Both the position numbers and the translations under genes were made by a program. Source: Escherichia phage 4MG. From it: 64,000 nt of DNA. The DNA is taken from the sequence record NC_022968.1; one strand, 5' to 3'. Below, piece after piece: positions 60,428-60,504 of this stretch (position 1 is its first letter; every line of letters starts with the position of its first letter). The notes under the pieces were generated by a model. It had not been told where the DNA came from. It saw nothing but the letters and a program-made list of their open reading frames with translations, and made no database searches.

Positions 60428-60504
60428 TGGTGGGCGACAGGGGACTCGAACCCCCAAAATTCGGAATCTAAATCCGACACGTATACCAATTCCATCAATC
60501 GCCC
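60428..60504 (-). tRNA. tRNA-Leu (UAG), short variable arm
   Basis: 77 nt; perfect anticodon stem TCGGA/TCCGA; loop TTTAGAT; A73; no long variable arm. Confidence 0.55.

Follow-up and report, generated by a model that had tools for sequence, protein, structure and literature searches.

The window analysed here, a stretch of phage DNA 64,000 nucleotides long, contains an array of about 26 tRNA genes (60179–63824, minus strand), of which ARAGORN called 23 and Rfam added more. It runs colinear to the 26 tRNAs annotated in Cronobacter phage GAP31, has two small ORFs interspersed and includes two tRNA-Leu genes, with UAG and UAA anticodons (henceforth referred to as Leu(UAG) and Leu(UAA)). The region from 60100 to 64000 is 94% identical to GAP31 over 92% of its length and also matches many Klebsiella, Salmonella and Enterobacter relatives; judged by such nucleotide similarity, the window phage is a Seunavirus-like member of the Vequintavirinae. 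A terminator-like hairpin, GCCCCGC-UCUU-GCGGGGC followed by a U run (60115–60132, minus strand), was picked up by a consensus scan only and lies just after the last tRNA gene of the array, and the genes downstream encode a 474-aa protein, a spanin-like protein and the large terminase subunit. The 474-aa protein, encoded directly downstream of the array (58640–60064, minus strand), belongs to PHROG 16176, a family of unknown function, and gave a faint nucleotidyltransferase PHROG hit (E = 2.6e-4) in which no single stretch passes.

An earlier note on this DNA, made from the letters alone, had placed a tRNA-Leu gene with a UAG anticodon and a short variable arm at 60428–60504. ARAGORN and the Rfam tRNA model (RF00005) agree on a tRNA gene with these coordinates, and the gene is 100% identical to an annotated tRNA-Leu of phages GAP31, KB57 and KpS11; the strand, which had not been given, is minus, so that the 5′ end of the gene is at 60504. 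Leu(UAG) is 77 nt long (a 74-nt body plus an encoded CCA) and scores 50.8 bits against RF00005 (E = 6e-8, whole window searched), above the gathering threshold of 29 bits and with a full-length match to model positions 1–71. The covariance-model alignment runs from end to end with posterior '*' at all positions, and the gene departs from the model by three single-base insertions only, one of them in the variable loop. Read 5′ to 3′, its segments are GGGCGAU UG AUG GAAUUGGUAUA CGU G UCGGA UUUAGAU UCCGA AUUUU GGGGG UUCGAGU CCCCU GUCGCCC A CCA. These correspond to a 7-bp acceptor stem with a U7–G66 wobble; a D arm in which the strands of a 3-bp stem flank an 11-nt loop (60482–60492, minus strand; G13 A14 A15 U16 U17 G18 G19 U20 A20a U21 A22); a perfect 5-bp anticodon stem with a 7-nt loop that contains U33, the anticodon UAG (60468–60470, minus strand) and A37, where E. 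coli tRNA-Leu(UAG) has G37; a 5-nt variable loop at positions 44–48 (60456–60460, minus strand), the last base of which, U48, is the expected Levitt partner of A15; and the discriminator A73 (the A at 60431), which together with the encoded CCA occupies 60428–60431 on the minus strand. The 5-nt variable loop, the perfect anticodon stem, its loop (TTTAGAT as DNA) and A73, all of which had been pointed out before, can thus each be read in the sequence.

Type II tRNAs have a variable arm of more than 10 nt that forms a stem-loop, and the variable region of both Leu genes of the window is 5 nt. Because 77 nt including the CCA leave room for just five variable nucleotides in Leu(UAG), a long-arm fold is impossible, and the better-scoring long-arm alternative that could have overturned the earlier reading was returned by neither ARAGORN nor Infernal. 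Going by its identity features in the sequence, Leu(UAG) is therefore a tRNA-Leu, but it is not a type II tRNA. For Leu(UAG), the minimum free energy (MFE) structure (−25.5 kcal/mol) is likewise the cloverleaf, with a folding z-score (−0.99) that is unremarkable alone.

The second short-arm gene that had been named, Leu(UAA), was confirmed as a 78-nt gene at 63289–63366 (minus strand) by ARAGORN and Rfam (46.3 bits) and was assigned to Leu by its isotype profile. Its D arm combines a 3-bp stem with a 12-nt loop (CAAUCUGGUAGA) that includes G21, and the gene further has the variable loop GGGUU, G37, A73 and CCA. Its MFE fold is not the cloverleaf and its folding z-score is −0.21; since single-sequence z-scores such as these two are uninformative for tRNAs, we relied on covariation instead.

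Relatives of Leu(UAG) in PVP-SE1-type and Avunavirus phages are 87–90% identical to it, and the same layout recurs in Seunavirus, Avunavirus, Tequintavirus, Epseptimavirus, Vibrio Thalassavirus and Aeromonas Libingvirus. The layout, which we refer to as T5-type, consists of a 74-nt body with segments of 7/2/3/11/3/1/5/7/5/5/5/7/5/7/1 nt; Leu(UAG) fits it and aligns without gaps with the T5 gene and 97 other members. In a gap-free alignment of 98 family members (A1), each less than 85% identical to the others, 98.4% of pair cells in the stems were paired, all 20 pairs showed double changes and the covariation score was 1.04 against 0.26 for shuffled alignments, with 34–44% pairing in controls in which the partners were slid. 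Because ARAGORN, which favours sequences that pair, supplied the A1 members, the percentage of paired cells is circular in part; this does not apply to the compensatory change. Among 153 unique family members A14, A15, G18 and U48 are invariant (U48 in 153/153), A20a is present in 99% and A73 in 97%; U48 and A73 lay outside the search pattern that defined the family. The UAG and UAA anticodons are conserved across the family, and the anticodon arms of the Leu genes vary among phages as close as GAP31, PVP-SE1 and the window phage, a detail that would fit active divergence from host tRNAs. Overall, a short-arm tRNA-Leu family is common to T5-like, Vequintavirinae, Vibrio and Aeromonas phages and to mobile tRNA arrays in bacteria. 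A G1–U72 wobble forms the first acceptor pair in 34 of the 98 aligned members, including T5 Leu(UAA); both window genes have G1–C72.

These data bear on whether Leu(UAG) might be a decaying pseudogene or a non-functional relic. The array does hold degenerate members, namely a pseudo-tRNA at 62264–62333 and a sub-threshold Gly gene, and the single-sequence folding z-score of Leu(UAG) is not significant. Against decay stand a perfect cloverleaf, an encoded CCA, complete conservation in three other phages and, in the family, compensatory changes in all 20 pairs together with invariant tertiary positions, and we consider it highly improbable.

The tRNA-like gene at 62264–62333 (minus strand) is 70 nt long, has a malformed anticodon loop and was reported by ARAGORN as 'tRNA-???', with two bases in the anticodon; the GAP31 annotation lists it as a tRNA-OTHER pseudogene, yet it scores 38 bits on the Rfam tRNA model. 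ARAGORN missed three tRNA genes altogether (61459–61542, 60179–60257 and 62428–62498, all on the minus strand). The missed Lys(UUU) gene has an enlarged D loop (Rfam, 50.5 bits), and a missed tRNA with a CAU anticodon (Rfam, 45 bits) is annotated as Met in GAP31. Gly(UCC) reached 27.2 bits, just below the Rfam threshold, and its GAP31 copy is called normally.

The closest well-known counterparts are the tRNA-Leu genes of T5 (T5_ev212, LR597659; Tequintavirus), which have the same anticodon pair, UAG and UAA, are both 77 nt long and, like the window genes, possess a 3-bp D stem, A73, an encoded CCA and a 5-nt variable loop (GUUUU in T5), with a GAAUUGG(U/C)AUA D loop. T5 and window Leu(UAG) have an identical 74-nt layout and align without gaps at ~77% identity (blastn against T5-like phages, E = 2e-6). 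Compensatory changes separate the two genes in three stems (acceptor, anticodon and T), and their anticodon loops read CUUAGAA (T5) and UUUAGAU (window). Leu(UAG) also matches the T5-type consensus at AUUUU (R-U-U-Y-U) and GGUAUA (GGYAUA), the latter marking a large T5-type clade to which it belongs. The gene comes directly after tRNA-Ala in T5 and in the window phage alike. The spacer between the two genes in the window (60505–60613, minus strand) is 109 nt, compared to 35 nt in GAP31, which indicates an insertion of about 74 nt; neither a tRNA nor an Rfam match was obtained for this spacer, and its folding is not significant (z = −0.35).

Leu(UAA) departs from the 74-nt layout by one extra D-loop base, agrees with the T5-type consensus in part only (GGGUU, GGUAGA) and, with its 12-nt D loop and G21, looks closer to long-arm UAA genes than to its T5 namesake. 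GAP31 apart, its nearest relatives are long-arm UAA genes (0.68 identity), and its D stem, GUC...GGC, is shared with T4 tRNA-Leu. Because Leu(UAA) is closer to long-arm UAA genes and has a D stem as in T4, the arm may have been lost more than once in phage tRNA-Leu, as far as sequence similarity can tell; with regard to a single origin of the short-arm family the nearest-neighbour picture is mixed, 74 nt being too short to decide. A comparison with T4- and T5-type phages, which the earlier note had suggested as a check, produced a clean split: the T4-type tRNA-Leu(UAA) is likewise phage-encoded with a Leu-type D arm, but it keeps a 15-nt arm and is 87 nt long (520 T-even-like records), as against 5 nt in the T5 type.

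We next consider how the short-arm genes relate to the tRNA-Leu of the host. A blastn search with the 77-nt Leu(UAG) gene found no match in 5,426 E. coli genomes, the primary sequences being too diverged, and layouts were therefore compared with three E. coli tRNA-Leu sequences, each present with 100% identity in more than 5,400 genomes and all annotated as tRNA-Leu. All segment lengths agree apart from that of the variable region, which measures 5 nt in the phage and forms a stem-loop of 13–15 nt in E. coli. E. coli tRNA-Leu(UAG) (leuW type) shares with the phage gene its anticodon, the 7-bp acceptor stem, U8, the 3-bp D stem, an 11-nt D loop of the form A14 A15 UU G18G19 U A20a N A22, U48 and A73, and differs from it at position 37 (G37 in E. 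coli, A37 in the phage). The D loops are nearly alike: GAAUUGGUAUA in phage Leu(UAG), GAAUUGGUAGA in E. coli tRNA-Leu(CAG) and AAAUUGGUAGA in E. coli tRNA-Leu(UAG). The corresponding motif, A14A15-YY(N)-GG-YANA, was present in 35% of the long-arm and 68% of the short-arm Leu genes, the latter taken without selection on the anticodon, and in at most 5% of genes of any other isotype (0/172 Ser and 0/96 Tyr).

Both window genes carry A73, A14, A15, U48, G18G19 and A20a as well as Leu anticodons, UAG and UAA, and A15 and U48 are predicted to form a tertiary pair in each. As LeuRS ignores the anticodon, the anticodon alone is no proof of Leu identity, and a short variable loop is the type I pattern; Leu(UAG) could thus in principle be another isotype with a shifted anticodon, or be charged with an amino acid other than leucine, and so recode or mistranslate CUN codons. 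To address isotype independently of both features, we trained one profile HMM per isotype (20 isotypes; ~2,400 phage and array tRNAs), hiding the anticodon and cutting out the variable region in queries and training sets alike. Leu(UAG) scored 40.7 bits on the long-arm Leu profile compared to 22.1 bits on that of the next isotype (a margin of 18.6 bits) and Leu(UAA) scored 24.3 bits compared to 10.3 bits for the runner-up. The isotype models therefore chose Leu for both genes, rather than the other amino acid that would have counted against the earlier reading, and these margins are the largest among the window tRNAs, in a home-made classifier that is imperfect (own class for 13/22 window tRNAs) and whose training labels are the anticodons only. 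By established identity rules AlaRS recognises G3:U70 and SerRS the long arm, and Leu(UAG) has neither element; to our knowledge, no anticodon-dependent synthetase reads UAG or UAA anticodons. With a D arm, an A73 and a whole body that are Leu-type and the nearest non-Leu profile 18.6 bits behind, we give next to no credence to another isotype or to charging with another amino acid.

The features that the phage genes retain are those on which leucylation depends. In E. coli LeuRS recognition, A73, the A15–U48 Levitt pair, G18G19 and A20a are essential, and leucylation is uncorrelated with the sequence and folding of the long arm (reviewed in PMC9976931). Arm-less E. coli tRNA-Leu constructs (Larkin 2002; Asahara 1993 and 1998, as summarised in PMC9976931), obtained by minimalist design or SELEX, depend on A73 and the D/T-loop tertiary contacts and are still LeuRS substrates; these are laboratory constructs, whereas the phage gene is natural, conserved and known here from sequence. 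Human mt-tRNA-Leu(UUR) is a natural type I tRNA-Leu whose identity depends on A73 and A14 (PMC9976931), but animal mitochondrial tRNA-Leu is served by a different synthetase and comes from an unrelated lineage, and is likened to the phage gene by features only. The absence of the long arm from phage tRNA-Leu is probably explained by bacterial LeuRS not requiring it. However, a 2025 structural paper describes contacts between the variable arm and basic residues in the C-terminal domain of LeuRS and counts the arm as an identity feature (PMC12360207), and in view of these contacts charging of an arm-less tRNA-Leu may be less efficient.

Position 37 is swapped in both window genes relative to the E. 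coli isoacceptors: the UAG gene (anticodon at 60468–60470) has A37 in place of the host G37, and the UAA gene, with its anticodon at 63329–63331, has G37 in place of the host A37. In E. coli the residues at position 37 carry m1G and ms2i6A. Given the swap, these usual modifications may be absent from the phage Leu tRNAs. A37 is found in 107 of the 138 short-arm UAG genes of the family.

Cellular bacterial tRNA-Leu is described as type II, with a variable stem of 3–5 bp (PMC12360207). To establish how common the short-arm form is, we searched for a pattern that combined the Leu D loop with a UAR anticodon followed at short distance by the T loop. In IMG/VR the pattern occurred in at least 120 contigs, and among the matches listed, 127 of 127 lay inside tRNA-Leu genes called by ARAGORN. 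In a control sample of 118 IMG/VR loci, seeded not on Leu but on an unrelated G73 tRNA pattern, 18 of 56 tRNA-Leu genes were short-armed (32%, 95% CI 20–46%, from a small sample), and all 18 had A73. In marked contrast, a short arm was found in none of 60 Ser and none of 18 Tyr genes of this sample (0/78; Fisher p = 2e-8 compared to Leu). SerRS and bacterial TyrRS use the long variable arm, and bacterial LeuRS does not; as expected, therefore, the arms of Ser and Tyr tRNAs are always kept and that of Leu is often lost. An intermediate form of the arm was also seen, an 11-nt mini-arm, CGCUUCGGCGU.

The same pattern was used to scan bacteria, with one genome per species, which returned 78 real short-arm Leu genes and 42 non-tRNA matches, where ~69 chance matches were expected. 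Among the 78 real genes, 56 were in loci with at least five tRNAs per 8 kb, often near-complete, CCA-encoding arrays of multiple isotypes (for example, 31 genes in an Acidobacteriota MAG). Since such arrays recur almost unchanged in different MAGs, the results suggest that they are mobile elements rather than core genes. With most real hits in dense arrays of this mobile type, a short-arm tRNA-Leu as a normal bacterial chromosomal gene is unsupported, although some lineages may have one. In four Acidobacteriota MAG contigs of 0.5–2.2 Mb (L124, L139, L167 and L200) a near-identical block recurs in the order Leu(CAA or UAA, short), Ser, Ser, Tyr, Leu(UAG, short), which in L124 adjoins 26 further CCA-encoding tRNAs spanning all isotypes; the block looks like a mobile supplementary tRNA array inside large chromosomal contigs.

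The earlier description of Leu(UAG) as unusual for a tRNA-Leu thus holds relative to cellular bacterial genes but not among phages, in which the design is common and annotated. We found no discussion of short-arm tRNA-Leu in phages in the full-text literature, a search whose range excluded the T5 tRNA sequencing papers of the 1980s. The short-arm Leu gene is accordingly genuine and mildly unusual, but it is not new, being annotated as tRNA-Leu in GenBank relatives.

Taken together, the gene very probably encodes a functional tRNA-Leu, an ordinary decoding tRNA that is charged by the host LeuRS. Leu(UAG) would be transcribed from the minus strand within a polycistronic tRNA array, processed to a 77-nt tRNA ending in the encoded CCA and charged with leucine by the host leucyl-tRNA synthetase, which would recognise A73 and the elbow of the molecule (A14, A15:U48, G18G19, A20a, the Leu-type D loop and the 3-bp D stem). 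The charged tRNA would decode CUA and CUG, and possibly CUU and CUC if U34 is modified as in the host, and the sister gene Leu(UAA) would decode UUA and UUG. In the 58 ORFs of the window CUU makes up 30% of the Leu codons and CUA and UUA ~6% each; in E. coli the values are about 10% for CUU and about 4% for CUA. Codon supply is a plausible but weak rationale for carrying the Leu genes, because CUA and UUA each account for just ~6% of Leu codons. We also considered whether the RNA could act mainly outside translation, as a decoy or inhibitor for an enzyme of the host that binds tRNA or by giving rise to regulatory fragments, in line with the suggestion that overexpressed viral tRNAs are possibly competitive inhibitors of AriB, made in a study of the PARIS defence (PMC12409363). 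However, the anticodon loop is canonical (U33, 7 nt), the anticodons are conserved and nothing points away from decoding, which makes a mainly extra-translational role very unlikely.

The reason for the loss of the arm is a matter separate from decoding by a leucine-charged tRNA. On one view, the arm disappeared by neutral deletion in a streamlined array. Alternatively, loss of the long arm could have been selected: an arm-less tRNA still chargeable by LeuRS would evade a tRNA-directed host defence, such as a nuclease or a nucleotidyltransferase toxin, that recognises or cuts the class II arm, and leucine decoding would continue once the tRNA-Leu of the host is inactivated. A reported preference of MenT3 and AbiEii for class II tRNAs is suggestive only (bioRxiv 10.64898/2026.01.19.700257), and T5 tRNA-Lys, Thr and Asn variants are reported to neutralise PARIS (PMC12409363). 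Short-arm genes amount to about one third of phage tRNA-Leu genes and sit in mobile arrays, and the description of bacterial tRNA-Leu as type II (PMC12360207) argues against simple neutrality. Furthermore, the same arrays remodel the variable arms of Asn, Thr and Ile(UAU) in the opposite direction, and the anticodon loops of both window Leu genes differ from those of the host, which fits active divergence. On the other hand, deletion bias and genome streamlining would explain the pattern of arm loss equally well, and the bacterial Schlafen that has been studied cuts the anticodon arms of type I tRNAs. As arms are retained in the Ser and Tyr tRNAs of these arrays, a benefit of losing the arm is not demonstrable by comparison. 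A search of the literature on bacterial defences found none that attacks tRNA-Leu by way of its arm: PARIS, Septu/retron-Eco7 and the bacterial Schlafen have other tRNAs as their targets, and the DARNA and OLD preprints make no mention of tRNA-Leu or variable arms. Because no such defence was found, we regard selection of the short arm for evasion as unlikely, and the wider proposal that arm loss in Leu is a counter-defence trait within a general remodelling of arms, in which Leu loses and Asn, Thr and Ile(UAU) gain, as more doubtful still.

For the window phage itself, Leu(UAG) is an ordinary working part of its array and of small significance. The part worth following up is the Leu-specific loss of the arm in about one third of phage tRNA-Leu genes. 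Whereas textbooks and recent structural papers present the tRNA-Leu of bacterial systems as obligatorily type II, about one third of the phage genes sampled are otherwise. Arm loss confined to Leu represents a natural experiment that agrees with LeuRS biochemistry in that the arm is not needed, and it raises the question of what cellular role is played by an arm that phages dispense with or gain by losing. The arm-less natural tRNA-Leu scaffolds are possible compact substrates for the engineering of LeuRS, and annotation pipelines should not count short-arm Leu calls in phages as suspect.

Several other tRNAs of the window and of the sampled loci have variable arms or boundaries that merit mention. 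The window tRNA-Asn(GUU) (61197–61285, minus strand) is 89 nt long with a 17-nt variable arm (4-bp stem) and G73, a class II-like shape in an isotype that is normally type I, and the same gene is present in GAP31. The variable region of T5 tRNA-Asn is 13 nt and the arm of T5 tRNA-Thr is 15 nt, and variable regions of at least 10 nt occurred in 6 of the 29 Asn genes of the control sample. tRNA-Ile(UAU) genes of 90–99 nt, found in many phage or mobile-array loci (for example L010, L020, L051, L054, L124, L128, L257 and L276) and absent from the window, have a variable arm of 20–27 nt with a conserved CCAGAUUAGCG-like motif as its loop; this class II shape, again in a normally type I isotype, was seen in 7 of 21 Ile genes of the control sample. 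The window tRNA-Ser genes with UGA and GCU anticodons (61548–61636 and 61637–61729, minus strand) abut with zero spacer. The discriminator of E. coli tRNA-Ser is G73; ARAGORN reads U73 in both phage genes, the boundaries of which are possibly misplaced. tRNA-Ser(UGA) is matched better by the Rfam tRNA-Sec model than by the general tRNA model, at a sub-threshold 34 bits.

Two further elements lie inside the array. A conserved ORF of 121 aa (62678–63043, minus strand; PHROG 3330, of unknown function) is located behind two promoter-like sites. Between tRNA-Arg(GCG) and Leu(UAA), in a 300-nt gap the rest of which is 63367–63556, there is a structured RNA of 111 nt (63557–63667, minus strand; MFE −46.6 kcal/mol, z = −3.4) that has no Rfam match. 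It comprises a 7-bp acceptor-like stem, three internal hairpins, a T-arm-like GGUGG-UUAGAUU-CCACC element and a 3′ U-CCA, and looks like an expanded tRNA-like molecule.
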